A stretch of 18,817 nt of DNA from Candidatus Parcubacteria bacterium (GTDB lineage: Bacteria > Patescibacteriota > Minisyncoccia > Minisyncoccales > JAGMAB01), in the NCBI GenBank assembly GCA_023131055.1, contig JAGMAB010000007.1, positions 1-18,817 on the forward strand, given 5' to 3'. Positions 327 through 17,582 of the stretch are shown one piece after another. The notes below the pieces were generated by a model. It saw only the letters and a program-made list of their open reading frames with translations, was not told where the DNA came from and did not search any database. The translations under genes were made by a program, and so were the position numbers. The first letter of the stretch is position 1; each line of letters opens with the position of its first letter.

Positions 327-426
327 AAAATAGGAAGTAGAAAAAGTTTAAATTTTAATTGTATTTTATAACAGAAAACTTAATTCGGCAATTTGGATAA
401 ATTAAAACGATTGTGGATAATTAAAC

Positions 427-455
427 TTGACAGGATTTATTGATTTGATATACTT
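427..455 (+). promoter_or_regulatory. Sigma-70-like promoter for the downstream small RNA. It has TTGACA (427-432), a 16-nt spacer, and an extended -10 TGaTATACT (446-454).
   Basis: Near-consensus -35 and -10 hexamers with a TGn extension. The predicted start site is about 459-462, right at the 11-nt segment that pairs with 587-597. Confidence 0.5.
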
Positions 456-460
456 AAAAT

Positions 461-637
461 GTCAAGCACGGGAACAATCGCAACTCCGAAAATCCGAGAC
501 CTTATAGTCATCGGATTTTCTTTTTATTAAAAAATATACTATTCTGAATACGTGGAGTTTCAAGGGGCCACCTCATGGCGAGGTTTCCGTGCTTGACACT
601 CGGAATGAGGGGTTCGATTCCCCTTGGCTCCACGCCA
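461..637 (+). ncRNA. Structured small RNA of about 175 nt. Its 3' domain (564-632) is a tmRNA/tRNA-Ala-like acceptor and T-arm minihelix. Candidate reduced or atypical tmRNA-like RNA.
   Basis: Acceptor 5' strand GGGGCCA (564-570) pairs with TGGCTCC (625-631), including a G3:U70 wobble. T-arm is AGGGG/TTCGATT/CCCCT (608-624) and the discriminator is A632. Stem TCAT/ATGA (573-576/605-608) closes a 28-nt loop. The loop segment CCGTGCTTGAC (587-597) is perfectly complementary to GTCAAGCACGG (461-471) at the predicted 5' end. A local hairpin pairs GAAAATCCGA (487-496) with TCGGATTTTC (512-521). An alternative fold pairs CGTGGAG (551-557) with CTCCACG (628-634), followed by CCA (635-637). Confidence 0.45.
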
Positions 638-675
638 AAAATCGTTCCGCTTACAGCAGGACGATTTTTAGTTTG
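638..675. terminator. Bidirectional rho-independent terminator hairpin.
   Basis: AAAAATCGT (638-646) pairs with ACGATTTTT (664-672), and a T-run follows on both strands. It lies between the small RNA (plus strand) and the 3' end of the minus-strand CDS at 702. Confidence 0.5.
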
Positions 676-701
676 AAAAAAATCGCATAATATGGATACA
701 T

Positions 702-1130
702 TTATCCGCTAATAGCAGCAAGAATTCCTGAACCTATAATTACAAACAATAATCCTAATATTTTCAACAATGTTATTGATTCTCCTAAGAAAAATCCTAT
801 TAAAACCGCAATTGCGATACTTCCTCCAATAATTATCGGACCTGCAACTGAAATAGCAAGTCCAGATCCGTAAGCTTTTAGCGCAAAATAATCAATTGTT
901 AAAGCACATACTCCTGCTAATACAGCAAACAAAATTCCTTTTGGATTAGAAAACAAAGTTGTTGTTTTAATTTTAGGTAGTAGAAAAATTAAACCCAAAA
1001 CAACAGCAGTAAGTGAAACAATTATTGCGCCAAATAAATAATTTATTTTGTCTGCAGCTTGCTGATGAAAAACTGTCCAAGCACCAAAAGCAACTGCGGC
1101 GATTATTGCGAAAATTATTCCTGGATTCAT
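702..1130 (-). CDS. Small 4-TM membrane protein, EamA/DMT-superfamily-like single-domain transporter.
   Basis: 142 aa with four hydrophobic helices and Gly-rich packing motifs (GPIIIGGSIAIAVLIGFFLGE). Size and topology match half-size EamA/SMR-like proteins. Confidence 0.5.
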   Translation of the reverse strand: MNPGIIFAIIAAVAFGAWTVFHQQAADKINYLFGAIIVSLTAVVLGLIFLLPKIKTTTLFSNPKGILFAVLAGVCALTIDYFALKAYGSGLAISVAGPIIIGGSIAIAVLIGFFLGESITLLKILGLLFVIIGSGILAAISG

Positions 1131-1198
1131 AATATTAATAGATTATTGATGTAAGTATATAAATATTTTCTTCTAGTGTCTAATTGATTTATTATTTG

Positions 1199-1702
1199 TT
1201 AGAGAAAATTCTGGATTTTTTCCAAACTATTTTCAAGATTAAAAACAATATCAAAATTTTTAATTTCTTTTGGTTTAATCCATTTATATTCTGTGTGTTC
1301 CCAATCTAATTTTATCTCTGGTTTGTTCCTTAATTTTATTAAAACAGGATGAACAATCCAAGTTTTTTTTATTTCAGTATCTGTAAACTGATAGAATTCT
1401 CCAATATGAATTGATAATATATTATTATCGCGCTCAATTCCTAATTCTTCTCTAATTTCTTCAAGGACTTTCTCGCGAATTGGTTTTAATTCATCTAAAT
1501 AACCGGCAACTGTGTTCCATTTTCCCTGATATGTTCTGACCTTATCGCTTCTTTTCAAAAGAAGAATATTATTTTGATATTCAATAAAAACGGTTATTAC
1601 CGGCGCGGTGTCAGAATTTGAATAATCAATTCTTCCGTCTGGAAATTTAGGCAGTTTTTCATCAAATTGTTTTATAATTTCTAAAATTTTCTGCTCATTC
1701 AT
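1199..1702 (-). CDS. NUDIX hydrolase.
   Basis: Nudix box-like segment GKWNTVAGYLDELKPIREKVLEEIREELGI, matching the G..E..REuxEExGu pattern. Length is 167 aa. Confidence 0.75.
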   Translation of the reverse strand: MNEQKILEIIKQFDEKLPKFPDGRIDYSNSDTAPVITVFIEYQNNILLLKRSDKVRTYQGKWNTVAGYLDELKPIREKVLEEIREELGIERDNNILSIHIGEFYQFTDTEIKKTWIVHPVLIKLRNKPEIKLDWEHTEYKWIKPKEIKNFDIVFNLENSLEKIQNFL

Positions 1703-1714
1703 AAAAAGCTTAAT

Positions 1715-1933
1715 TTACTTTTTAAAAAAATCGTCTGCTTTAAGTCCTGATAGAAGCAAAATGGACTGAAATGTTCCATAGGGAATTTCTTTTTTACCTA
1801 TTTTCACAATAACCGTCCGCGTTGGATTACCTGTTTTACGGAATTTAGCATGGCTTCCTTTTTGAGAAACAAAAACAAAGCCCTTGGAAAGAAAGACTTT
1901 TATAACAATCTTTAATCTAATGGGTTTAGGCAT
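1715..1933 (-). CDS. hicA: HicA-family mRNA interferase toxin.
   Basis: 72 aa with KGFVFVSQKGSHAKFRK...RTVIVKIGKKEIPYGTFQSILLLSGL. This matches the HicA core (GSH motif, PxGT...IL...GL tail). It overlaps the upstream hicB stop by 8 nt. Confidence 0.7.
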   Translation of the reverse strand: MPKPIRLKIVIKVFLSKGFVFVSQKGSHAKFRKTGNPTRTVIVKIGKKEIPYGTFQSILLLSGLKADDFFKK

Positions 1934-2144
1934 ATTCTAAAGCAAATGGAACAATATCTGGTCGTTCCACCTTTACCGCCTTTGATACTGGCACATCTTC
2001 AAAGTAAAGCTCTAACGCTTCCCGAAGACTATCTAAAGCCTCTTTTTTTGTTTCTCCAAAACTAGAAACCCCGGTGTTTAAATTCCAGGACACATAATAC
2101 TTGCCTTCTTTCCAAACTATGTTTTTTAAGTTTATTTTACGCAT
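1926..2144 (-). CDS. hicB: HicB-family antitoxin (short UPF0150-type).
   Basis: 72 aa with KEGKYYVSWNLNTGVSSFGETKKEALDSLREALELYFED, resembling the HicB N-terminal domain. It sits immediately upstream of hicA and overlaps it. Confidence 0.6.
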   Translation of the reverse strand: MRKINLKNIVWKEGKYYVSWNLNTGVSSFGETKKEALDSLREALELYFEDVPVSKAVKVERPDIVPFALEYA

Positions 2145-2229
2145 ATGTTTTTAGAGGTTATTTCTATTTTTAGAGTATCAAATTAAAAAATTAAGTCAAA
2201 TTTAATCATAAAAAAATCTTATTGATTTA

Positions 2230-3336
2230 TTATAAATTTGAAACAAAATAATTTTTAACAGCAAACTCAAATTGCTCAATAAAAAGATTTTTGAAATAAC
2301 TAATATTGTTTTGTTCATAAAATAAAATAATCGCTTTTTTGTATTCTTCTTCTTTAACACTGCGATAAGAAAGCGGACAAATATTATTAGCCATTAAAAT
2401 AGCGTTAGCAGCCAATCTGCTTGTTCGTTTATTGCCATCGTCAAACGGTTGAATATAAGCAACCATTACCATTAAAATAACGGCTTTGGCAAAAATGTTT
2501 TTTTCTTGATTAACTATTGCGCAAGTTTTTTCTAACGCTTCTCTGATTTGAAAAACATTATCTATTGGACAATATGCGGTGCCGGTAATTCCAACCGGTA
2601 ATTTTCTAAGCCCGCTACTAATATCCAAATCTTTAGTCAAAAGAAAATGTATATCTTCCAGTTTGGCAACTGTAATTTTTTTAAACGCCAAAAGATTTTT
2701 CCTGATATATTCCAAAACATTTTTATGATTCAAAATCATAATTGCTTCTTTTTTTTTGCGGCCTTTGGCTTGCTTGTTATGTTTAATCAAAAATTCTGTC
2801 TCTAAAAGAGTATAAGTATTTCCTTCAATAGCAGAAGATTTCCAACTTAATTCTATAACTAATCGCTCAAATTCGCGCTTAAAATTTGCCTTTGGTAATT
2901 TTTTAATATTTTTTTGATATTCAAAAGCAAGCTGGTTAAGCTCTTTTTCTTCATCAACAATAAAAATATTTTTAAAAATATCAACAAGTTCAAAATTAAA
3001 ACTTTTTTTACCCCTTCTTTGATCCGGCGCAATTTTGAAATAATCATTTACATCAATCGGCTTTAAAAGATTATATTGATTAGATAATTGATAGACCACG
3101 CTTCTGCCTTTACCAATTCGTTTAACAAAATTAAATTTTAACAATTGATTTAAATCTCTAATTATCGTAATCCTGGAAATTTTAGAAAATTTTTGAACCA
3201 AATCAAAAACCAGTTCGGAAACAGAGATTTTCCCTTGTTTATCAATCAAATTCAGAATTATTTCTTGTCTTTTATTTAATTGGTTAAACTTTAACTCCAT
3301 GATAATTGTATCATTTTTATGCTCTAATTGTATCAT
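2230..3336 (-). CDS. wHTH-Fic/Doc family protein with a non-canonical active-site motif QPFDDGNKRTSR. An alternative start is at 3300.
   Basis: N-terminal winged-HTH-like region (residues about 13-85). SSAIEGN matches the Fic inhibitory helix motif [ST]xxxE[GN]. The Fic core IQPFDDGNKRTSRLAANAIL corresponds to HxFx(D/E)GN(G/K)RxxR, with the His codon read as CAA (Gln). The GNKR version is Doc-like. Confidence 0.75.
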   Translation of the reverse strand: MIQLEHKNDTIIMELKFNQLNKRQEIILNLIDKQGKISVSELVFDLVQKFSKISRITIIRDLNQLLKFNFVKRIGKGRSVVYQLSNQYNLLKPIDVNDYFKIAPDQRRGKKSFNFELVDIFKNIFIVDEEKELNQLAFEYQKNIKKLPKANFKREFERLVIELSWKSSAIEGNTYTLLETEFLIKHNKQAKGRKKKEAIMILNHKNVLEYIRKNLLAFKKITVAKLEDIHFLLTKDLDISSGLRKLPVGITGTAYCPIDNVFQIREALEKTCAIVNQEKNIFAKAVILMVMVAYIQPFDDGNKRTSRLAANAILMANNICPLSYRSVKEEEYKKAIILFYEQNNISYFKNLFIEQFEFAVKNYFVSNL

Positions 3337-3346
3337 TTATGATACA
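3303..3346. promoter_or_regulatory. Direct repeats and a palindrome at the 5' end of the Fic gene.
   Basis: 14-bp direct repeat TAATTGTATCATTT at 3303-3316 and 3325-3338. 18-bp palindrome TGTATCATTTATGATACA at 3329-3346. Two possible ATG starts (3336 and 3300) are embedded in it. Confidence 0.3.
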
Positions 3347-3369
3347 AAACACAACCAATTATATCTTTG

Positions 3370-3440
3370 TGGACTCAGCGAGAATCGAACTCGCATTTCC
3401 GCAATGCGAATGCGGTGTAATGCCATTATACTATGAGCCC
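3370..3440 (-). tRNA. tRNA-Ala (anticodon CGC). CCA is not encoded.
   Basis: Reverse complement reads GGGCTCA TA GTAT..ATTAC A CCGCA TTCGCAT TGCGG AAAT GCGAG TTCGATT CTCGC TGAGTCC A. It has a 7-bp acceptor with G3:U70, anticodon loop uuCGCau, canonical T-loop TTCGATT, and is followed by CAA. Confidence 0.85.
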
Positions 3441-3505
3441 ATGTGTGAATTTTCAATTTCTAATTTTCAATTTTCATTCAATTTTCAATGTCTAAATTTT
3501 CAAAT
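3441..3505. repeat. AT-rich tandem repeat with period of about 16 nt (AATTTTCAAT core, 4-5 copies) upstream of tRNA-Ala.
   Basis: tgAATTTTCAATttct/AATTTTCAATtttcat/tcAATTTTCAATgtct/aAATTTTCAAattaaa. On the minus strand this reads as repeated TTGAAAATT (-35-like TTGAAA) upstream of the tRNA. Confidence 0.5.
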
Positions 3506-3957
3506 TAAATCAAAATGTTTTTAAGTTCAGCCAACGAACGGATTTTAATGCCTGAATAATTTTTAATTTTGTTTTCGCGGTCAATCAGTATGGCTTTCAT
3601 TCCCAATTTTTCAGCCGGTAAAATATCTCTTTCTATTTCATCGCCGACCATTACTGCTTGTTTTGGCTTAACATTAAACTTTTCTAAAACCATTAAAAAC
3701 GCTCTCGTGTCTGGTTTTATAAATTTTGTTTCTTTTGGCGTAAAAATCTCAAAATGTTTTTCCAAACCAAGATTAGAAAACAAAAAAGCAGAACCAGTAG
3801 TCAAAATCGCTTTTTGGCAGGGAAGTCCAAAAACTTCTTTTGCATCGTCAAAAAGCCCACAATCAACATTTCCCTTGAGAAAATCCTCTTTTTTGACTTC
3901 TTTTGCAAAAAATCCCAACGTCCCAAAAAAATCAAATATTATCAGTTGTGATTTCAT
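3505..3957 (-). CDS. HAD-superfamily hydrolase, start trimmed to the internal ATG.
   Basis: MKSQLIIFDFFGTL (motif I with D-x-F rather than DxD), ILTTGS (motif II-like), VMVGDEIERDI (motif III GDxxxD). The longer ORF track start at 4050 would overlap a tRNA gene and is rejected. Confidence 0.7.
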   Translation of the reverse strand: MKSQLIIFDFFGTLGFFAKEVKKEDFLKGNVDCGLFDDAKEVFGLPCQKAILTTGSAFLFSNLGLEKHFEIFTPKETKFIKPDTRAFLMVLEKFNVKPKQAVMVGDEIERDILPAEKLGMKAILIDRENKIKNYSGIKIRSLAELKNILI

Positions 3958-3960
3958 ATG

Positions 3961-4031
3961 TCGGGCTACCGAGATTTGCACTCGGGCTAAATTCTCCCGA
4001 AGAACTCGTGCTACTATTACACTATAGCCCG
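3961..4031 (-). tRNA. tRNA-Pro (anticodon CGG) with atypical D- and T-loops. CCA is not encoded.
   Basis: Reverse complement reads CGGGCTA TA GTGT AATAGTA GCAC G AGTTC TTCGGGA GAATT TAGC CCGAG TGCAAAT CTCGG TAGCCCG A. Acceptor and anticodon stems are good, with U33 and G37. The T-loop reads UGCAAAU (G at position 55) and the D-loop lacks GG. Confidence 0.55.
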
Positions 4032-4067
4032 ATATACAATCATTTATCAATAATTAATAATCATTTA

Positions 4068-4090
4068 CTTAGAAATTAAAAATTTCTAAG
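4068..4090 (-). terminator. Perfect 10-bp stem hairpin overlapping the cca stop codon.
   Basis: CTTAGAAATT aaa AATTTCTAAG. It sits at the 3' end of the minus-strand cca gene, where the plus-strand context is AT-rich. Confidence 0.4.
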
Positions 4091-5552
4091 TGACCCAGTA
4101 TTTTTGCTTTGTCATCTTATCTTTTTTCATTTCTAATGTTTCTCTTTGTTTTTTGGCTTCCCGGGTTTTTGATTCTAATTCTTTGTCAGATAGTTGACCT
4201 AATTTCTTGATTTCTTTTTCCAAAAATTCTTTTTTGTTTTTTTGAGGGTCTTCCAAAACATAACCAAGTAAAACATCTAAAATTTGTCCTATCTTTATAC
4301 AAGGCCTGATTTTCAAAAGCCGCATTACATCATCTCCTTTAACTTTTAATTTCATAACTGAAATCGGGTCTTGGGCAACTTTTTCAATTAAATATCTAAG
4401 ATGCCTTAATTTATACGGTTCCGCTTTGGGACAGCCAGACCCAATCCTATCGCACATTCTCACTTGAAGCAGTTCATTTATGTTTTCTACGCCAACCTGA
4501 CGCACTAATCTCCTTACCGACGCTTTGCCAACCTCGTCAACATTATAATAAAACAAATGATATCTGACTAATTTAAAAATCTTCTCAATATCTTTTTTGG
4601 AAAATTTCAACCGATTTAGCAATTGAATAGTCATTTTTGCTCCAACTATTTCGTGGTTGTAAAAAGTAGCGTTTGGTCCTTTGCCTCGCTTGGTTCTAGG
4701 CTTTCCAATATCGTGAAGCAAAGCAGCCAAGCGAACATATTTGTTAAAATTGCTCTTAACAGCAAAATCCAAAGAACGCAAACTATGTTCATAACAATCA
4801 TAAATATGATGCTTGTTCTGGCTTATTCCATAACCCTCTTCTAATTCCGGAATAATATATTTTAACATTTTAAGCTGCCTTAAAAGCTCTATGCCTTCAG
4901 ACGCTTTTTCAGACATAATAATTTTCATCAGTTCATCTCTGATTCGCTCTTTGGAAATTGTTCCTAATAAAATAGAATTTTTTTTGATTGCTTGTTTGGT
5001 TTTTTCTTCAATCTGCCATCCGCCAGCTGGCGGACTTCCCAAAACAGATATTAAACGAACCGCTCTGAGCATTCTCAAAGCATCTTCATTAAACCTGTTT
5101 TCCGGCTTGCCCACCGCGCGAATAAGTTTATTCTCTAAATCTTTTTGCCCGTTAAATAAGTCAATAATTTCCAATTTTCCATCCATTGCTATTGCATTGA
5201 CAGTAAAGTCGCGTCTTTTCAAATCCTGTTCAATTGTCTTGGCAAACTTGATTTCATCAGGATGCCGTTTGTCAGTATATTTTGCTTCGCAGCGATAAGT
5301 GGTAATTTCAATTTCCTTAAGCTCTGGTTTTTTACTGCCTGTTTTAACGGTCACTGTTAAAAACTTGTTCTCATAAAAACTTTTAGGGAATATTTTTTGA
5401 ATTTCTTCCGGCTTAGCGTTAGTGGCAACATCCCAATCTTTGGGCTTAATTCCCGTTAAAAAATCCCTGACGCAGCCGCCAACAATATGAGCGCTAAAAC
5501 GCTTTTTCTTTAATTTATCAATTACAAGTTTTACTTCTTTTGGAATTTCCAT
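4086..5552 (-). CDS. cca: CCA-adding tRNA nucleotidyltransferase with an HD domain.
   Basis: N-terminal pol-beta nucleotidyltransferase motif GGCVRDFLTGIKPKDWDVATNAKPEEI. HD motif LLHDIGKP. Length 488 aa with a K/E-rich C-terminus. Confidence 0.85.
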   Translation of the reverse strand: MEIPKEVKLVIDKLKKKRFSAHIVGGCVRDFLTGIKPKDWDVATNAKPEEIQKIFPKSFYENKFLTVTVKTGSKKPELKEIEITTYRCEAKYTDKRHPDEIKFAKTIEQDLKRRDFTVNAIAMDGKLEIIDLFNGQKDLENKLIRAVGKPENRFNEDALRMLRAVRLISVLGSPPAGGWQIEEKTKQAIKKNSILLGTISKERIRDELMKIIMSEKASEGIELLRQLKMLKYIIPELEEGYGISQNKHHIYDCYEHSLRSLDFAVKSNFNKYVRLAALLHDIGKPRTKRGKGPNATFYNHEIVGAKMTIQLLNRLKFSKKDIEKIFKLVRYHLFYYNVDEVGKASVRRLVRQVGVENINELLQVRMCDRIGSGCPKAEPYKLRHLRYLIEKVAQDPISVMKLKVKGDDVMRLLKIRPCIKIGQILDVLLGYVLEDPQKNKKEFLEKEIKKLGQLSDKELESKTREAKKQRETLEMKKDKMTKQKYWVT

Positions 5553-7037: not shown

Positions 7038-9133
7038 AAGAAAAAATTTACAAATTAGACATTGATGGCAAGGAACTTATTATTAAAATTACTGATTTAA
7101 CAGAACAAGCGTCCGGAAGTTGCTTAATCCAATATGGCGACACATTGGTTTTGGCAACAGCAGTAATGTCAAAACAGGAAAGAGAAGGCATAGATTTTTT
7201 TCCTTTAAGCGTTGAATATCAGGAAAGATTTTACGCCGCGGGGAAAATTCTGGGCTCCCGTTATATCAGAAGAGAAAGCCGTCCTTCTGATGAAGCGATT
7301 TTAACCGCGCGTTTGATTGACAGAACAATCAGGCCGCTTTTCCCGGAAAACCTAAAAAAAGAAATTCAAGTTGTTCTCACCTGTCTTTCATGGGACAGAG
7401 AAAACGACCCTGATATAATCTGCTTGATTGCCGCTTCTTTAAGTTTGGCAAGTTCTGACATCCCTTGGTCGGGTCCTATTGCCAGCGTAAGAGTCGGACG
7501 GCTGGATAACAAATTTATTCTCAATCCTACTTACGAGCAAAGAGAAAAAAGCGATTTTGATTTAGTAATATCAGGCATTGAAAAAAATCATGAGATTTTA
7601 ATCAATATGCTTGAAGGAGAAGGACAGGAAACAGAAGAAGACGCAGTTCTGCAGGCGGTTAAATTTTCAATGCCTTATTTAAAAAAACTTATTTCCTTTC
7701 AAAAACAGATTATTCAAGAAATAGGCAAAGAAAAAAGCTTGGTCAAAGCTCAAGAACAGGACATTGACTTGGAAAAAGACATCAAAGAATTCTTGGAACA
7801 ACGATTGGAAAAAATTGAAAACCTTGGCGCTCTTAAAGACGACTTGCTCTCTTTTGTTGCGGAAAAATATCCTGAACCAAAGAAAATAAATTACGCCAAA
7901 GATATTTTTGAAAAAGAAATAGAAAAAGCGCTCCATCAAAGAATAATTGCAAAAGAAGAAAGGCCTGATAGCAGGAAATTAGACGAAACAAGAGAAATTT
8001 CCTGCGCAACCGGCATCTTGCCAAGAACGCACGGGTCAGGGCTTTTCTGCCGCGGACTGACCAAAACTTTATCTATTCTTACGCTGGGCGCGCCGGGAGA
8101 TGTCCGTTTTTTGGAAGGAATGGAAATTGTCGGCAAGAAAAGGTTTATGCATCATTATAATTTCCCTGCTTACTGCGTCGGCGAAGTAAAGCCGTTCAGA
8201 GGTCCCGGGCGAAGAGAAATAGGGCATGGAATGCTGGCTGAAAAAGCTTTATTGCCGCTAATCCCTGATTCGGATGAATTTCCCTACACAATCAGGATTG
8301 TTTCTGAAAATTTGTCTTCCAACGGTTCCACATCTATGGCTTCTATTTCATCTTCTTGCTTGGCTCTGATGGATGCCGGGGTGCCGATAAAAACTCCTGT
8401 TGCTGGAATTGCCATTGGCTTAATACAAGATTCTTCAGGAAATTACAAAATTTTAACTGATATTCAGGGTCCGGAAGACCATTACGGCGATATGGACTTT
8501 AAAGTGGCAGGAACTGAAAAAGGCATAACCGCTATTCAAATGGATGTTAAAATTAAAGGCATTACTGAACAAATTCTAAAGCAGGCATTAGAACAAGGCA
8601 AAAAAGCAAGAAAGCAGATTTTGGAAAAAATGAAAAAAACAATAGCAAGTCCAAGGACAGAACTTTCGCCATTTGCCCCTAAAATTAAAACCTTGCAGAT
8701 TAATCCTGAAAAAATAAGAGAAGTAATCGGACCCGGCGGAAAAATAATTAACAAAATAATTGAAGATTGCGGAGTTACCATTGACATTGAGGATTCCGGC
8801 AAGATTTTTGTCGCTTCAGAATCAGAACAAGCAGTGGATAAAGCAATGGAATGGATAAAAAATATTACCAGAGAAGTGGAAATAGGAGAAATTTTCCAGG
8901 GCAAGGTGAAAAGAATTTTGGACTTTGGCGCTTTTGTTGAAATACTGCCGGGACAGGACGGCTTGGTTCATATTTCCGAATTAGCTCCGTATAGAGTGGA
9001 AAAAGTTGAAGACATAGTTAAAATAGGCGATACAGTGTCAGTAAAAGTGATTTCTGTTGACGAGCAAGGACGGATAAACCTTTCAATAAAACAAATAAAA
9101 GAACAAAATGACCATGGAAGAAAACACAAATAA
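7034..9133 (+). CDS. pnp: Polynucleotide phosphorylase.
   Basis: Two RNase PH-like domains (SNGSTSMASISSSCLALMDAGVPI), a KH domain (IREVIGPGGKIINKI) and an S1 domain (GKVKRILDFGAFVEILPGQDGLVHISEL). Length 699 aa. Confidence 0.95.
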   Translation: MKEKIYKLDIDGKELIIKITDLTEQASGSCLIQYGDTLVLATAVMSKQEREGIDFFPLSVEYQERFYAAGKILGSRYIRRESRPSDEAILTARLIDRTIRPLFPENLKKEIQVVLTCLSWDRENDPDIICLIAASLSLASSDIPWSGPIASVRVGRLDNKFILNPTYEQREKSDFDLVISGIEKNHEILINMLEGEGQETEEDAVLQAVKFSMPYLKKLISFQKQIIQEIGKEKSLVKAQEQDIDLEKDIKEFLEQRLEKIENLGALKDDLLSFVAEKYPEPKKINYAKDIFEKEIEKALHQRIIAKEERPDSRKLDETREISCATGILPRTHGSGLFCRGLTKTLSILTLGAPGDVRFLEGMEIVGKKRFMHHYNFPAYCVGEVKPFRGPGRREIGHGMLAEKALLPLIPDSDEFPYTIRIVSENLSSNGSTSMASISSSCLALMDAGVPIKTPVAGIAIGLIQDSSGNYKILTDIQGPEDHYGDMDFKVAGTEKGITAIQMDVKIKGITEQILKQALEQGKKARKQILEKMKKTIASPRTELSPFAPKIKTLQINPEKIREVIGPGGKIINKIIEDCGVTIDIEDSGKIFVASESEQAVDKAMEWIKNITREVEIGEIFQGKVKRILDFGAFVEILPGQDGLVHISELAPYRVEKVEDIVKIGDTVSVKVISVDEQGRINLSIKQIKEQNDHGRKHK

Positions 9134-10040
9134 GGTAAATGAAGAAAAACAAAAAAAGGAGTTTTTGAAAAGAACAGAAATACGAACAATGGCAAAAGAT
9201 ATCACTAAATTAAGAAAGATAGAAACCGAGAAAGAAAAACAAAGAATTATGGGTTTGCGACCCAAAGAACAAGACAAAAAACCCGTGCTTGCGCCAACAG
9301 CAGATATAAACAAGGAAACCTTAATTCCTAAGCCCTTGTCTAAAAAATCTTTTCCTTTTAAAAAACTTTTACCCAGAGCAATAGTTGTTTTAATAATTAT
9401 TTGCGCGCTTGGCTTGATTTTTTGGCTCATTGGAGCAAAAAAGGCTCCGGATGAGAAACCATTTGTACCGGAAATTACTCAACCAGATGAAGAAGAAATT
9501 GAAGAAAAAATTCCGGAAAAAATACCGGAAATTCATATTCCTGCTTGCTTAATTTTAACTGAACAAACAGAAATTCTGGAAATTTCTGAAACCCAAGACA
9601 TTGTTCAAGTTTTCTCTCAAATAATGGAGCAGGAATTGCCAAATGATGCTTTAATCCGGGTTGTAATTAAAAATATTAGCCAAGGACGCTTAGTATCTTT
9701 ACAAGAACTATCTTCTGTTTTTCAAATAGAAATTTCTTCAGAAATTTTTCAGAAATTTGGGCCAGATTATAGCTTAATTATTTATGGACAAGAGCAAGGA
9801 AAAAGAATTGCCTTTATCGCTAATATAAAAGAAAAACAAGGGCTAACTGAATCATTAGACAAATGGGAACAAGAATTAAAAGAATTCAAACCGGCAAAAT
9901 ATAAAGGCATTGCTTTCCGCTATCTGACTATCTCTGAACAAGACCACATTGGAATTTGTTATTCTTTTATTGACGATTTGTTTATCTGGACTTCTTCGGG
10001 CGAATTAATGGTTAAAATTATTGATAAACTAAGTGATTAA
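9108..10040 (+). CDS. Hypothetical membrane-anchored protein with a charged N-terminus, one TM helix and a C-terminal domain of about 190 aa.
   Basis: 310-aa ORF with K/E-rich N-terminal region, TM IVVLIIICALGLIFWLIG, then an acidic linker and a globular domain. It overlaps the pnp 3' end by 26 nt. The start could be a downstream Met. Confidence 0.45.
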   Translation: MTMEENTNKVNEEKQKKEFLKRTEIRTMAKDITKLRKIETEKEKQRIMGLRPKEQDKKPVLAPTADINKETLIPKPLSKKSFPFKKLLPRAIVVLIIICALGLIFWLIGAKKAPDEKPFVPEITQPDEEEIEEKIPEKIPEIHIPACLILTEQTEILEISETQDIVQVFSQIMEQELPNDALIRVVIKNISQGRLVSLQELSSVFQIEISSEIFQKFGPDYSLIIYGQEQGKRIAFIANIKEKQGLTESLDKWEQELKEFKPAKYKGIAFRYLTISEQDHIGICYSFIDDLFIWTSSGELMVKIIDKLSD

Positions 10041-12990: not shown

Positions 12991-13923
12991 ATGTCAAGTC
13001 AAAATAACCTGCTGTATCATACTAAGAAATTATTAAAAAAATATCAGGTTCTACCTTCTAAAAAACTGGGCCAGAATTTTTTAATTGATAAAACAGCAAT
13101 TAAAAAAATTATTGCGGCTGCAAATCTCCAGCCAAAAGATGTTGTTTTAGAAATCGGTCCGGGAACAGGAACTTTAACTCAAGAAATAGCAAAAAAAGTA
13201 AAACAAGTAATTGCCGTAGAAAAAGACGCAAAAATGCGCGAAATTTTAAAAGAAACAATGAAAGAATACAAAAATGTTAAAATCATCCAAGCAGACATTT
13301 TGAAAGTTATCAATAATAAATTATCAATAATTAATCAGGGCGAGAACATTTCTCGCCCTAAATTATCAGTAATCAATTACAAAGTGATAGGGAATTTGCC
13401 GTTTTATCTTACGGCGCCGGTAATCCGCAAATTCCTGGAATTGTTCGGGGTCAGACCCCGAACAATTCCACAACAGATGGTTTTTGTGGTTCAAAAAGAA
13501 GTGGGTCAGAGAATTTGCCCGCCTCGCCGAGCCCGCTCGGCGGGCGAGGCGGGCGCCAAACTAGGAAAAATGAATTTATTGGCGGTCTCGGTTCAGTTTT
13601 ACGCCAATGTAAAAATCATTGCTTATATCTCTAAAAAATGTTTTTGGCCTCAGCCAAAAGTTGACTCCGCTATTATCAAAATCACACCGCTGATTAATGC
13701 TGATAAAAATCTGATTAATGCTGATTTGTTTTTTAGAATTGTTAAAGCAGGTTTTTCGCAGCCAAGAAAACAATTGCTCAATACCTTATCTTCGGGATTG
13801 AAAGTTGAACGCGAGAAAACAAAAAACTGGCTTTTGAAAAACAATATCCCTGTAACACAAAGACCGGAAACATTAAGTATTAAAGATTGGATGTTGCTTG
13901 TTAAAAATATGCCCCGTAGTTAA
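12991..13923 (+). CDS. rsmA: 16S rRNA (adenine1518/1519-N6)-dimethyltransferase RsmA/KsgA, with two short in-frame insertions.
   Basis: LGQNFLIDKTAIKKII...VLEIGPGTGTLT...GNLPFYLTAPVI...KVDSAIIKITP. Extra segments (ELFGVRPRTIP and PPRRARSAGEAG) are encoded by GC-rich palindromes. Confidence 0.9.
   Translation: MSSQNNLLYHTKKLLKKYQVLPSKKLGQNFLIDKTAIKKIIAAANLQPKDVVLEIGPGTGTLTQEIAKKVKQVIAVEKDAKMREILKETMKEYKNVKIIQADILKVINNKLSIINQGENISRPKLSVINYKVIGNLPFYLTAPVIRKFLELFGVRPRTIPQQMVFVVQKEVGQRICPPRRARSAGEAGAKLGKMNLLAVSVQFYANVKIIAYISKKCFWPQPKVDSAIIKITPLINADKNLINADLFFRIVKAGFSQPRKQLLNTLSSGLKVEREKTKNWLLKNNIPVTQRPETLSIKDWMLLVKNMPRS
13437..13469. repeat. Perfect 33-bp palindrome (16-bp arms) inside the rsmA coding sequence.
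   Basis: GGAATTGTTCGGGGTC a GACCCCGAACAATTCC. It is in-frame and encodes ELFGVRPRTIP. Confidence 0.7.
13518..13553. repeat. GC-rich (about 80% GC) imperfect inverted repeat of about 36 bp inside the rsmA coding sequence.
   Basis: CCCGCCTCGCC GAGCCCGCTCGGCG GGCGAGGCGGG. The 11-nt outer arms are perfectly complementary and there is an inner CCGAGC/GCTCGG stem. The host gene is about 33% GC. Confidence 0.65.
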
Positions 13924-13941: not shown

Positions 13942-16041
13942 ATGGGGTTTTACACTTTATTAAAAAAGGGTAAAATAAAACTAATGAAAACAAACATTAA
14001 AAAACAAGTTCTCTTTTTTAGCGCTGTTTTGTTTTCAATATCTCTTGGCATAATTATTCCTCTTCACTTTAGCCATGCATTTATAGCAGAGTCCATTGGA
14101 ATGTATGTAGGTTCCTGGATTATTGCAGGCGGCTTGCAGGTTGTTTTAGCTGTTTCCAGTTTAATAGTTGGTTTGGCAGGAATGATTTTAAGCTGGGTTT
14201 TAAGCCCTTATTTTATGTCAATGCCATATACTTCCGGAGGCGTTGTTGAAATCGGCTGGCCAATTGTTAGGGACTTTATCAATATGTTCTTTGTTCTTGG
14301 TCTTGTTGTAATTGGATTGGCAACTGCTTTGCGCTTAAAAGAATACCAAGCGCAAAAGGCCTTGCCTGTTTTAATAATTATTGCTATTTTAATTAATTTT
14401 ACGCCTGTAATCTGCGGTGTGATTGTTGACGCTTCAAATATCCTAATGAATTTCTTCTTGGAAGAAATATCTGGTTTTGGAACTATGATTAATCTTTTTT
14501 CCAGCCAGGGAGCAATGCTTGCCCAAACAATTACTGCTGACAGCTTTAGCCAGCTCGCGGCTCTTCCTTTTACCATTATAGGCAAAACACTTATTATGAT
14601 TGTTTTTGCCTGGGTTACCGCGTTTATTTTCTTTATGTATTCCATGCTTTTTATAATGAGATATGTAATGATTTGGGTTTTGGTGATTGTTTCGCCAATA
14701 GCGTTCTTTTCCAGAATTTTTCCGGCAACTAAAAAAGGTGAATATGTTTTCAAAAGTATTTTGGGCTGGGATGAATGGTGGAAGCAATTTTTTGAATGGA
14801 CATTAATCGGAGTTACCGGCGCCTTTTTTCTATATTTGGGTGAACAAATAATGAATGGATTTTCAATTTCAACTGCTGGCTGGTTACAAGGAATTCCGCC
14901 AGAAGGAGGAGGATGGGTTATAGATATAATTACGGCTCCGATTATTGAATTTATGAACACCATGCTGTCCTGGGGCGTTGTTCTGGCTTTTCTGTTTATC
15001 GGCTGGATGGTGGCTATTGAAACCAAAGCGCTTGGAGCAAAACATATTACCGACACTTTCAAAAAAATGGGTAAAAAAATGGGTGTCGCAGGATTAAAAG
15101 TAGGAGCCGGAGCAACTATAAAAGCAGGAGGTCTAATAAAAGACACGGCTTTAGGATCAGGAGCAGGATTTTATGGAGGAATAAAAACAGAAAAAGGATT
15201 AGGTAAAATTAAAGGTGCGGTAATGGGAGCTCATATGGGAGGAATATCAGGCATAAAGCAAGGAGCGGCAAGATGGTATAAAGACAAAGATTTACCTAAC
15301 AATGCAACTAGAATGGATAAAATAAAAGCAGGATTTCAAACTGCCTTTGAAGATGTAAAATCTATACCTAAAGCTGGCGCGAAAGCAGCAGCAAAAGATT
15401 TGGGAGTTCCAGAATTGTTTGAAGAACCCAAAAAACCAGGAGAAAAACCAGAAATGCCAGAAATGCCAGACTTACCATCGAATTTATCAGATGAAGAACG
15501 TACAGAACGCATAGAAGATTTCAGGGAAAAGGTAAACACATATGGAAAAGAAACGGAAGAATACTCCACACAGAAAAAACCTTCTGCCGCACCCGTATCA
15601 CCAGTAGAACCTGAAAAACCTTCTACTTCGCCTGTGACTCCGCCAGAAAAAAAGAAAACAGTTCAAGCAACATTTGGTCAACCCTCAGAACCCCAAGAAA
15701 AAGCAGAAAAATGGGGAGGAATAGTTCCGCCTACAACACCATCGAAAGAAACTACACCGCCACCTAAAGAAAAACAAACAACAGGAGAATTTTACAAAGA
15801 ATTAAAAGAAGAAAGAAGAGAAAAGAAAGAAAAACGTAAAGAAAGAAAAGAGAAAAAGGAAAAAGGAAAGGAAAAAGAAGCAGGATGGGGAGCAGGAAGA
15901 GAAAAACCTTCTGGAGTTTTCAAAAAAGCACGTATAAGAAGAAAAATTGAAAAAAGCACTGAAAAAATTATAAAGGAAAATAAAAAAAGAGAAGAGAAAG
16001 AACAAAAAGAAAAAGAAGAAAAAAAGGCAGGATGGAAATAA
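13942..16041 (+). CDS. Polytopic membrane protein, VirB6/TrbL-like candidate T4SS channel component, with a long low-complexity C-terminal tail.
   Basis: Signal/TM N-terminus and at least 7 hydrophobic helices over residues about 20-360. A Gly-rich linker (GVAGLKVGAGATIKAGG) follows, then a PEK/PT-rich segment, then a K/E-rich tail (EKKEKRKERKEKKEKGKEKE). This architecture is typical of TrbL/VirB6-family proteins. The start could be the downstream Met (MKTNIKK). Confidence 0.45.
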   Translation: MGFYTLLKKGKIKLMKTNIKKQVLFFSAVLFSISLGIIIPLHFSHAFIAESIGMYVGSWIIAGGLQVVLAVSSLIVGLAGMILSWVLSPYFMSMPYTSGGVVEIGWPIVRDFINMFFVLGLVVIGLATALRLKEYQAQKALPVLIIIAILINFTPVICGVIVDASNILMNFFLEEISGFGTMINLFSSQGAMLAQTITADSFSQLAALPFTIIGKTLIMIVFAWVTAFIFFMYSMLFIMRYVMIWVLVIVSPIAFFSRIFPATKKGEYVFKSILGWDEWWKQFFEWTLIGVTGAFFLYLGEQIMNGFSISTAGWLQGIPPEGGGWVIDIITAPIIEFMNTMLSWGVVLAFLFIGWMVAIETKALGAKHITDTFKKMGKKMGVAGLKVGAGATIKAGGLIKDTALGSGAGFYGGIKTEKGLGKIKGAVMGAHMGGISGIKQGAARWYKDKDLPNNATRMDKIKAGFQTAFEDVKSIPKAGAKAAAKDLGVPELFEEPKKPGEKPEMPEMPDLPSNLSDEERTERIEDFREKVNTYGKETEEYSTQKKPSAAPVSPVEPEKPSTSPVTPPEKKKTVQATFGQPSEPQEKAEKWGGIVPPTTPSKETTPPPKEKQTTGEFYKELKEERREKKEKRKERKEKKEKGKEKEAGWGAGREKPSGVFKKARIRRKIEKSTEKIIKENKKREEKEQKEKEEKKAGWK

Positions 16042-17434: not shown

Positions 17435-17464
17435 TCTGACAACATTCAACGATCGTTGAAAGTT
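17435..17464. promoter_or_regulatory. 30-bp near-perfect palindrome, operator-like, in the divergent intergenic region.
   Basis: GACAACATTCAACGATCGTTGAAAGTTGTC. Its reverse complement differs at only 2 positions. The core CAACGATCGTTG is a perfect 12-mer. Confidence 0.5.
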
Positions 17465-17514
17465 GTCATTGTATGCGCGAGGTTTATCCACAGATAGAAT
17501 GTTTTATGTCAAAA

Positions 17515-17538
17515 GTATCTTGCTACGTAGCACGATAC
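17515..17538. promoter_or_regulatory. 24-bp imperfect palindrome with a perfect 10-bp core.
   Basis: GTATC tt GCTACGTAGC ac GATAC. The GCTACGTAGC core is self-complementary and the outer GTATC/GATAC arms are complementary. Confidence 0.4.
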
Positions 17539-17582
17539 TTTCTTCCTTTTTTCTCTTTTGGATATGACATTTCAAAACAGCC

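Follow-up and report, generated by a model that had tools for sequence, protein, structure and literature searches.

A putative alanine tRNA mimic predicted to pair with its own leader in an accessory small-RNA locus of a Candidatus Parcubacteria bacterium

Positions 427–675 of the DNA analyzed here, a contig of 18,817 nucleotides (nt) from a Candidatus Parcubacteria bacterium (JAGMAB010000007.1, assembly GCA_023131055.1; hereafter the window), carry an RNA gene of about 250 bases in a 375-nt gap without a called open reading frame (ORF) between YraN and an EamA-family gene. Our tentative reading is that this locus is an accessory small RNA (sRNA) module in which a mimic of tRNA-Ala would be masked by its own antisense leader. 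We regard the region as a gene since it possesses a consensus promoter and two terminator-like hairpins, lacks a called ORF and shows raised G+C. Identical DNA recurs on at least ten contigs that were assembled independently and stem from several samples, and hence the locus is not an assembly artefact. The initial annotation of this DNA had offered three readings, namely a reduced or novel-architecture transfer-messenger RNA (tmRNA), an alanylatable tRNA-like regulatory RNA and a tRNA-derived relic. The second is the best fit, as an RNA that would be alanylated and would serve in regulation.

The alanine-type tRNA-like element spans 69 nt on the plus strand (564–632). A 7-bp acceptor stem (GGGGCCA/UGGCUCC, 564–570/625–631) in which G566·U629 represents the G3:U70 pair, a canonical T arm (AGGGG-UUCGAUU-CCCCU, 608–624) and a discriminator A at 632 (A73) can all be read directly in the sequence, as had been stated initially, and the acceptor and T arm are the same as in many ordinary tRNA-Ala genes. 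A CCA end is not encoded, which is likewise the case for the four true tRNA genes of the window. The same account had denied the element a D arm and an anticodon arm and had placed a 28-nt loop, closed by a UCAU/AUGA stem, in their stead. This is not the best description, as a D-like and an anticodon-like arm fit instead and the element alone is predicted to fold into a compact cloverleaf of −30.7 kcal/mol with a variable region of 2 nt. The 4-bp D-like hairpin with the loop AUGGC (CCUC-AUGGC-GAGG, 571–574/580–583) abuts the acceptor with no linker at tRNA positions 8–9. The anticodon-like arm (585–589/601–605) can be extended to 7 bp with a U·U mismatch and carries the 7-nt loop CUUGACA at 592–598, with U33, UGA at 34–36 and a C at 37. 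The G+C content of the element is 52–57%, versus 22–30% in its flanks. Judged from the sequence, the simplest origin would be a compact phage- or island-type tRNA-Ala gene whose anticodon arm has been re-purposed.

The feature that sets this element apart from its controls is its complementarity to the 5′ end of the predicted transcript. An exact 11-nt match between 461–471 and 587–597 had been noted before and extends further than claimed: 12 nt are perfectly complementary (460–471/587–598), 16 nt are 94% complementary with a single G·U pair (460–475/583–598), and four more base pairs (478–481/579–582) follow beyond a 2-nt bulge. The antisense seed in the leader hence covers 460–481, and its target, 579–598, comprises the 3′ half of the D-like hairpin together with the 5′ half and the loop of the anticodon-like arm. 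Across the whole window, 460–475/583–598 is the best G+C-rich long-range inverted repeat. When 64 control loci with similar alanine-type tRNA-like sequences were inspected, the longest upstream complement mostly measured 5–9 nt and reached 11 nt in one case.

Energetically, the long helix is preferred. The full-length RNA has a minimum free energy of −70.2 kcal/mol with the long helix and of −51.0 kcal/mol when the cloverleaf is forced. According to the models the two are mutually exclusive, and the long helix crosses the acceptor stem so that both together would constitute a pseudoknot. If the RNA were cut at 563/564, the two pieces are calculated to gain 19 kcal/mol upon pairing (−72.0 versus −52.8 kcal/mol). 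Among all sites within 30 kb, the leader is calculated to pair best with the tRNA-like element (−35 kcal/mol); the runner-up (−27 kcal/mol) lies in the range of shuffled seeds, and no other trans target stands out over this distance. It is this combination of a 16-nt repeat far beyond the controls, a preference of about 19 kcal/mol and a leader whose best target is the element that leads us to read the arrangement as masking.

Transcription is expected to begin at a sigma-70-type promoter on the plus strand (427–454; TTGACA, 16 nt, TG-n-TATACT), which matches the consensus at 11 of 12 positions, bears the TG extension of the −10 element in agreement with the near-consensus promoter proposed initially, and is the top promoter-like site within positions 1–1300. 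The start is predicted at 459–461, 5–7 nt past the −10 element, as inferred from promoter geometry. A hairpin had been noted at 487–521; it is real (488–520), though its terminator-like look had been overlooked. This hairpin, T1, comprises 10 bp plus 3 inner bp (−16.6 kcal/mol) and runs into UUUUUAUU, the whole spanning 488–528 on the plus strand. Since its style of A-run, stem and U-run is the same as that of the second terminator T2, T1 is probably a terminator that would end a leader RNA of about 68 nt near 528. T1 escaped a simple terminator scan since the loop, as that scan delimits it, is longer than 8 nt. An AU-rich spacer (522–553) and a box, (C/U)GUGGAGUU at 551–559, precede the tRNA-like element on the plus strand. 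The box could pair with 482–487 (AACUCC) or with 628–634 (CUCCACG, which overlaps the 3′ strand of the acceptor), and any role of it is a conjecture from the sequence. Behind the element lies T2 (637–675, hairpin 637–669; 11-bp stem plus 3 inner bp), whose A-run and U-run flanks would permit termination in both directions; the hairpin and the U-run were found as expected from the initial description of a bidirectional terminator. In the terms of a terminator-ended sRNA, a promoter, a single-stranded 5′ seed, a 3′ terminator and a pairing target are thus all predicted.

We propose the following mode of action. From the strong promoter, transcripts would start around 459–461 and most would end at T1, yielding the leader RNA, in which 27 nt at the 5′ end would be left free. 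Read-through would cross the variable spacer, produce the tRNA-Ala mimic and end at T2, a layout that would furnish the short antisense RNA in excess over the tRNA-like RNA. Acting either in cis, within a read-through transcript, or in trans, as the short RNA, the first 16–20 nt of the leader would pair with the D and anticodon arm of the mimic, open the cloverleaf and replace the anticodon arm by a long duplex. As the 5′ segment would be free at the time 583–598 emerges, the duplex should arise ahead of the synthesis of the T arm and the 3′ acceptor strand. Beside the duplex, the minihelix of acceptor and T arm should still be able to form, as a pseudoknot with long loops. The minihelix has the G3:U70 pair and the A73 called for in substrates of RNase P, the CCA-adding enzyme and alanyl-tRNA synthetase (AlaRS). 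Under the established rules for such substrates, it would be expected to undergo cleavage by RNase P at 563/564, CCA addition, for which the window encodes an enzyme (4086–5552), and charging with alanine by AlaRS, which requires only an acceptor stem with G3:U70.

To gain insights into conservation, we compared the three alleles that were recovered in all. Allele A comprises the window and the contigs identical to it. Allele A′ (L222) is identical over 298–635 and then has six differences in T2, including a compensatory exchange of U642-A664 to C-G. Allele B (L004) is identical from 561 rightwards and diverged over 411–560. In allele B both promoter hexamers are kept with three substitutions in the 16-nt spacer between them, and the box GUGGAGUU is likewise retained. 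The leader of allele B (459–521) contains four changes in 63 nt, all structure-neutral: G472 is replaced by A, which turns the G·U pair of the long helix into A-U, a U-A pair of T1 becomes U·G and two bases change in the T1 loop. About 17 of 32 positions differ in the neighboring spacer (522–553), a contrast that points to constraint on the leader. In total, covariation among the three alleles is slight and amounts to one double change, in T2, and two one-sided changes. The pairing 461–471/587–597 and the G3:U70 pair had been put forward for a covariation check; the pairing is kept, with the G·U to A-U change falling just outside it at 472, and neither covaries. The identity breakpoints between the alleles, at 560/561 and 635/636, coincide with the borders of the tRNA-like element; the element may therefore serve as a site of crossover.

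The RNA resides in three different contexts, i.e. YraN/RNA/EamA-NUDIX-HicAB-Fic/tRNA-Ala(CGC) in the window, YraN/RNA/tRNA-Ala(CGC) with no cargo in L222, and EamA/RNA/MscS in L004. Using YraN as a synteny anchor, it is found only in some strains of the same 90% YraN cluster. It is missing from this locus in three contigs of that cluster (L223–L225), the YraN of such strains being about 97% identical, from L221 (YraN 88% identical), where tRNA-Ala(CGC) abuts the YraN start codon, and from L219 (YraN 85% identical), where Fic-HD-NUDIX fills the gap. No RNA was seen beside MscS homologs of 74–81% identity. The interval between the 3′ end of tRNA-Ala(CGC) and the YraN start (327–3368 in the window) is hyper-variable in this comparison: it is empty in L221, harbors the RNA alone in L222, Fic-HD-NUDIX in L219, an ORF of 231 residues in L223 and L225, and in the window the series Fic-HicBA-NUDIX-EamA-RNA. 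An integrase gene was not encountered in this hot spot in the window, L219 or L221–L225. Because it is absent from the locus in close relatives and varies in context, the RNA is, at the sequence level, an accessory gene, strain-variable and by our reading horizontally shuffled, that lies in the hyper-variable region at the 3′ side of tRNA-Ala(CGC).

Several observations weigh against a masked mimic as the function of the locus. No RNA lies beside EamA in the loci of 13 GTDB species (EamA identity 56–95%). Scans of IMG/VR with patterns for the anticodon-like arm, the D hairpin and the leader plus loop returned no relative, and BLASTN against GenBank phages gave T-arm and attP-like matches only and no homolog. 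A metagenome scan yielded no relative among the matches listed, its pattern also fitting ordinary tRNA-Ala genes, which swamped it. The tRNA-like element itself is invariant in the three alleles, so that acceptor, T arm and long helix show no covariation except for the one G·U to A-U change. Moreover, the identical block of L222 (298–635) includes 100 nt of non-RNA spacer while the adjacent YraN differs by about 3%, and part of the invariance of the RNA is therefore due to recent recombination rather than selection. Lastly, no internal promoter reaching 9 of 12 matches was found by the promoter scan, much of the transcription from the upstream promoter may stop near 528, and if T1 is efficient and no internal promoter exists, little mimic would be made.

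These observations bear on the main competitor, which holds that the element is a non-functional relic, i.e. a compact phage or island tRNA-Ala that has lost its anticodon and lies in a recombination hot spot along with a local inverted duplication of about 20 nt, with its conservation reflecting recent spread. The very narrow and patchy distribution is consistent with such a relic, as is the non-RNA DNA of L222 that is as invariant as the tRNA-like element, and so are C37 in the loop and the U·U in the stem, both unusual for a decoding tRNA, and the rejection of the element by the Rfam tRNA model and default ARAGORN. A relic would however not readily account for the consensus promoter hexamers kept in a diverged allele, for leader changes that are all structure-neutral next to a scrambled spacer, or for the compensatory change in T2. 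It is also at odds with the intact 7-bp acceptor, G53:C61, T loop and D-loop GG, with a high G+C maintained in an AT-rich genome and with the retention of the element in three contexts. We therefore consider a relic a possible but rather unlikely explanation. Should it apply, the locus would be of minor interest, mainly as a mark of a recombination hot spot beside tRNA-Ala(CGC).

Since the element harbors the alanine identity pair shared with tmRNA, we asked whether the locus could serve in trans-translation, either as a minimal two-piece tmRNA with a tag read from the GCA at 480 or as a competitor of the host tmRNA that lacks a coding sequence (CDS), like that of phage DS6A. A G3:U70 minihelix in which a long helix substitutes for the anticodon stem would suit this idea. 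At default settings, ARAGORN reports nothing at 427–675 and finds the four ordinary tRNAs of the window, and Rfam at gathering thresholds gives the same result. When the E-value is relaxed, the T arm (608–624) alone matches RF00023 with 11.6 bits and RF04321 with 10.8 bits, versus a gathering threshold of 47. For the tRNA model RF00005, no match is listed at E-values up to 10, and the four true tRNAs of the window score 55–71 bits. Lowering the ARAGORN threshold produces a shifted-register 'tRNA-Ser(tga)' at -ps80 and a 'tmRNA' with the tag ATPKIRDLIVIGFSFY* at -ps60, which favors a tag from GCA on its face; thresholds as low as these carry no weight.

The candidate tag frame from GCA at 480 reads ATPKIRDLIVIGFSFY here and ATPKIRDFMVIGFSFRLIL in allele B, ending in ...FSFY* in one allele and in ...FSFRLIL* in the other, and its substitutions follow the RNA structure and not the peptide. 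In real tmRNA tags, the C-terminus is the most conserved part, and tmRNA (ssrA) is a core gene. The elements are arranged in the order P2-3′-like strand, candidate message, hairpin, acceptor-5′, D, P2-5′-like strand, T arm and acceptor-3′. The partner of 583–598 is the 5′ end of the transcript with the candidate message after it, and 598–607 runs directly to the T arm. This order is not a circular permutation of that of tmRNA, and the initial claims that it is unlike that of permuted tmRNA and that there is no room for pseudoknots are upheld. The candidate message exits from the tRNA-proximal end of the long helix only 4 nt (476–479) before GCA, and we infer that delivery to the A site from such an exit is sterically implausible. 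Patescibacteria as a rule possess a standard tmRNA, with 5252 recorded in 6765 mostly incomplete genomes (PMC11915505). The reduced or novel-architecture tmRNA of the initial annotation thus fails on the missing model call, the wrong strand order, the unconserved tag and the accessory nature of the gene. Given these four points, the lack of pseudoknot room and the rule of a standard tmRNA, the RNA is almost certainly not a tmRNA.

The similarity to tmRNA nevertheless deserves a closer comparison. With the standard and two-piece forms (RF00023/RF04321) the RNA shares G3:U70, A73, the T arm, a long helix at the place of the anticodon stem and an expected RNase P processing into two base-paired pieces. 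It differs by the lack of pseudoknots and of a conserved tag, by another connectivity, by a total length of about 170 nt and by being accessory rather than core. CDS-less tmRNA forms of about 65–80 nt exist in plastids (about 65 nt) and in phage DS6A, and three 'standard, no CDS' forms are on record in Patescibacteria (PMC11915505). The DS6A form interferes with the host tmRNA according to a passage of PMC11915505 that cites Mao et al. 2009. We located the copy of this mycobacteriophage at JN698994 28478–28557. It resembles our element as a stand-alone RNA of about 65–80 nt with a G3:U70 acceptor and a T arm, without a tag frame and in mobile or accessory DNA. The DS6A RNA, GGGGCCG-CAAUGGUGGUCGAC-CGCCG...CGGCG, has an unpaired tmRNA-type D-analog (motif GGNNCGAC; GGUCGAC in DS6A) and an internal P2 hairpin; the element here lacks both and instead contains the base-paired D-like hairpin and the anticodon-like arm. 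Further, a separate stretch upstream supplies one strand of its long helix, and tmRNA models do not recognize the element. Overall, a role in trans-translation is very unlikely.

The element also resembles compact tRNA-Ala(UGC) genes of phages. An example is 4271–4340 of L022 (IMGVR_UViG_3300025133_000038; called tRNA-Ala(tgc) by ARAGORN). At 69–71 nt these genes are of similar length, and they share a G3:U70 acceptor that abuts a short D hairpin, its loop being of the UGG kind (CTTCATGGGTGAG versus CCTCATGGCGAGG here), a short variable region and a canonical T arm. The compact layout was matched side by side with L022, L060 and L154, the last being an orphan metagenomic element. In contrast to the element, which has CUUGACA (UGA, C37) and no alanine anticodon, the phage genes keep a UGC anticodon; they also have no upstream antisense segment and are members of phage tRNA arrays rather than genes with a promoter and leader of their own.

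This comparison raises the question of whether the element decodes. It could be an alanine-charged tRNA with the anticodon UGA that reads UCN serine codons as alanine, with the leader as its off-switch. The 7-nt loop with U33 and UGA at 34–36 would allow this, codon 2 of the leader (UCA, 462–464) faces the anticodon within the long helix, and phage tRNA-Ala genes of the same compactness retain UGC, so that such a layout can decode. AlaRS ignores the anticodon, so anticodon variants of tRNA-Ala mistranslate (PMC10543346). Measured against the canonical tRNA (RF00005), the element lacks the 8–9 linker, has a variable region of 2 nt and carries C37 in place of a near-universal purine; its stem contains the U·U mismatch, it stays below threshold in tRNA models, and a proteome-wide exchange of serine for alanine would be costly. 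Hence, we regard a decoding tRNA as highly improbable.

Further G3:U70 alanine-type orphans of 66–79 nt that ARAGORN does not call were encountered in phage and metagenome contigs, namely L036 (12931–12996), L050 (minus strand), L062 (minus strand), L109 (257–335) and L154 (225–295, minus strand). L062 and L109 resemble CDS-less mini-tmRNAs of the DS6A type, and L036 carries, about 60 nt downstream, 11 nt that are complementary to its own D/anticodon region. As all five escape the standard tRNA and tmRNA finders, the class may be under-annotated. Separately, at 4306–4857 of L031, a 202-kb IMG/VR contig, ARAGORN reports a tmRNA of 552 nt, with a tag of 28 residues, that lies in an array of phage tRNA genes.

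An AUG also lies at the predicted transcript start and begins an ORF of 23 codons (459–530), and the leader might accordingly be a leaderless mRNA for a peptide of 23–26 residues, e.g. a type I toxin, with the tRNA-like element as a fold-back inhibitor of its translation. The frame is open in both alleles, the 5′ end and the AUG-proximal codons are sequestered in the long helix, and the locus sits among toxin-antitoxin genes. The allelic changes, however, comprise three non-synonymous and one synonymous exchange, leave a different C-terminus and track the RNA structure, and the hydrophobic stretch of 9–12 residues is too short for a membrane helix. A 41-residue ORF on the minus strand (508–633) has no homolog in the protein database, the 23-residue peptide itself not having been searched. 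A leaderless peptide gene is thus a most improbable explanation.

The surroundings of the locus also invite a comparison with type III toxin-antitoxin systems (ToxIN), which are laid out as promoter, antitoxin RNA, leaky terminator and toxin. The locus follows this order as well, with an RNA antagonist behind the promoter and an effector reached by read-through of the terminator, and it likewise lies among toxin-antitoxin genes. Here, the read-through product is RNA instead of protein and the antagonist would act by base pairing, and by this analogy the likeness is one of layout only, not of membership. As a variant of the masked mimic, the locus might constitute an RNA-only toxin-antitoxin or abortive-infection module, in which a free, stable, alanine-charged mimic would be harmful and be restrained by a labile antisense leader in excess. 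The mimic could misread UCN as alanine or titrate AlaRS, EF-Tu, SmpB or the ribosomal A site, and a shut-off of transcription, e.g. by a phage, would unmask it. We judge this extension quite unlikely.

Other types of element were considered and rejected. Excision of 460–598 restores no gene and no target-site duplication is present, which speaks against a miniature inverted-repeat transposable element with the inverted repeat as its ends. An integron attC site would need other core motifs, no recombinase gene lies nearby for an invertible segment and no reverse transcriptase gene is present for a retron. An archaeal split tRNA or a C/D-box guide RNA is dismissed by the bacterial gene content and by the sole CUGA box, which is not conserved in allele B. 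A T-box or attenuator lacks an alternative antiterminator pairing and a downstream gene, and signal recognition particle RNA, 6S RNA and Y RNA find no Rfam match.

If the masked mimic proves functional, it would represent a natural case in which one transcription unit encodes both a tRNA mimic and the antisense RNA dedicated to its regulation, and would add an RNA-against-RNA layout to the island-borne accessory genes of bacteria of the Candidate Phyla Radiation (CPR). To our knowledge, the small-RNA biology of CPR bacteria is almost unknown. Such a module would also provide a simple test bed for the effect of a free alanylated minihelix in the cell.

Turning to the neighborhood, YraN on the left starts at 326 and the small EamA-family gene on the right occupies 702–1130, both on the minus strand. 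Two DnaA-box-like 9-mers on the minus strand, TTATCCAAA at 392–400 and a perfect TTATCCACA at 412–420, lie 20 nt apart just upstream of the −35 element, the second one marking the left edge of homology with allele B. Such 9-mers are not enriched across the window (6 matches versus 4.4 expected), and the significance of the pair is uncertain. The genes of the window are bacterial in kind, including PNPase, a CCA-adding enzyme (4086–5552), ribosomal protein S15, an M23/LysM peptidase and ComM, and the hot spot contains HicAB and Fic genes. Its tRNA-Ala(CGC) is located at 3369–3440 on the minus strand. An AT-rich tandem array at 3448–3503, with 3.6 copies of the unit AATTTTCAATTTCTA and TTTCAA sub-repeats, lies between this tRNA and a HAD hydrolase gene. 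The annotated HAD ORF (181 residues, TTG start, 3505–4050, minus strand) overlaps the entire tRNA-Pro(CGG) on the same strand (3960–4031), and its start is probably annotated too far upstream.

Elsewhere in the window, a perfect 17-nt hairpin is found at 13436–13470, and two near-perfect palindromes of 17–18 nt lie about 60 nt apart in intergenic DNA (17437–17468 and 17512–17541), which may be operator sites. Two ORFs of 699 (13942–16041) and 310 residues (9108–10040) have no Pfam match. In a related strain, a gene for an IS200/IS605-type Y1 transposase (L213, 1910–2389) comes next after the EamA gene, which fits the mobile surroundings of EamA. Homologs of EamA and MscS with 65–95% identity occur both in metagenome-assembled genomes labeled CPR and in those labeled DPANN (L009–L021; P0025, P0072, P0099), the latter assigned to Woesearchaeota, Aenigmatarchaeota, Nanoarchaeia and Diapherotrites, a spread that suggests either cross-domain transfer or mis-binning.

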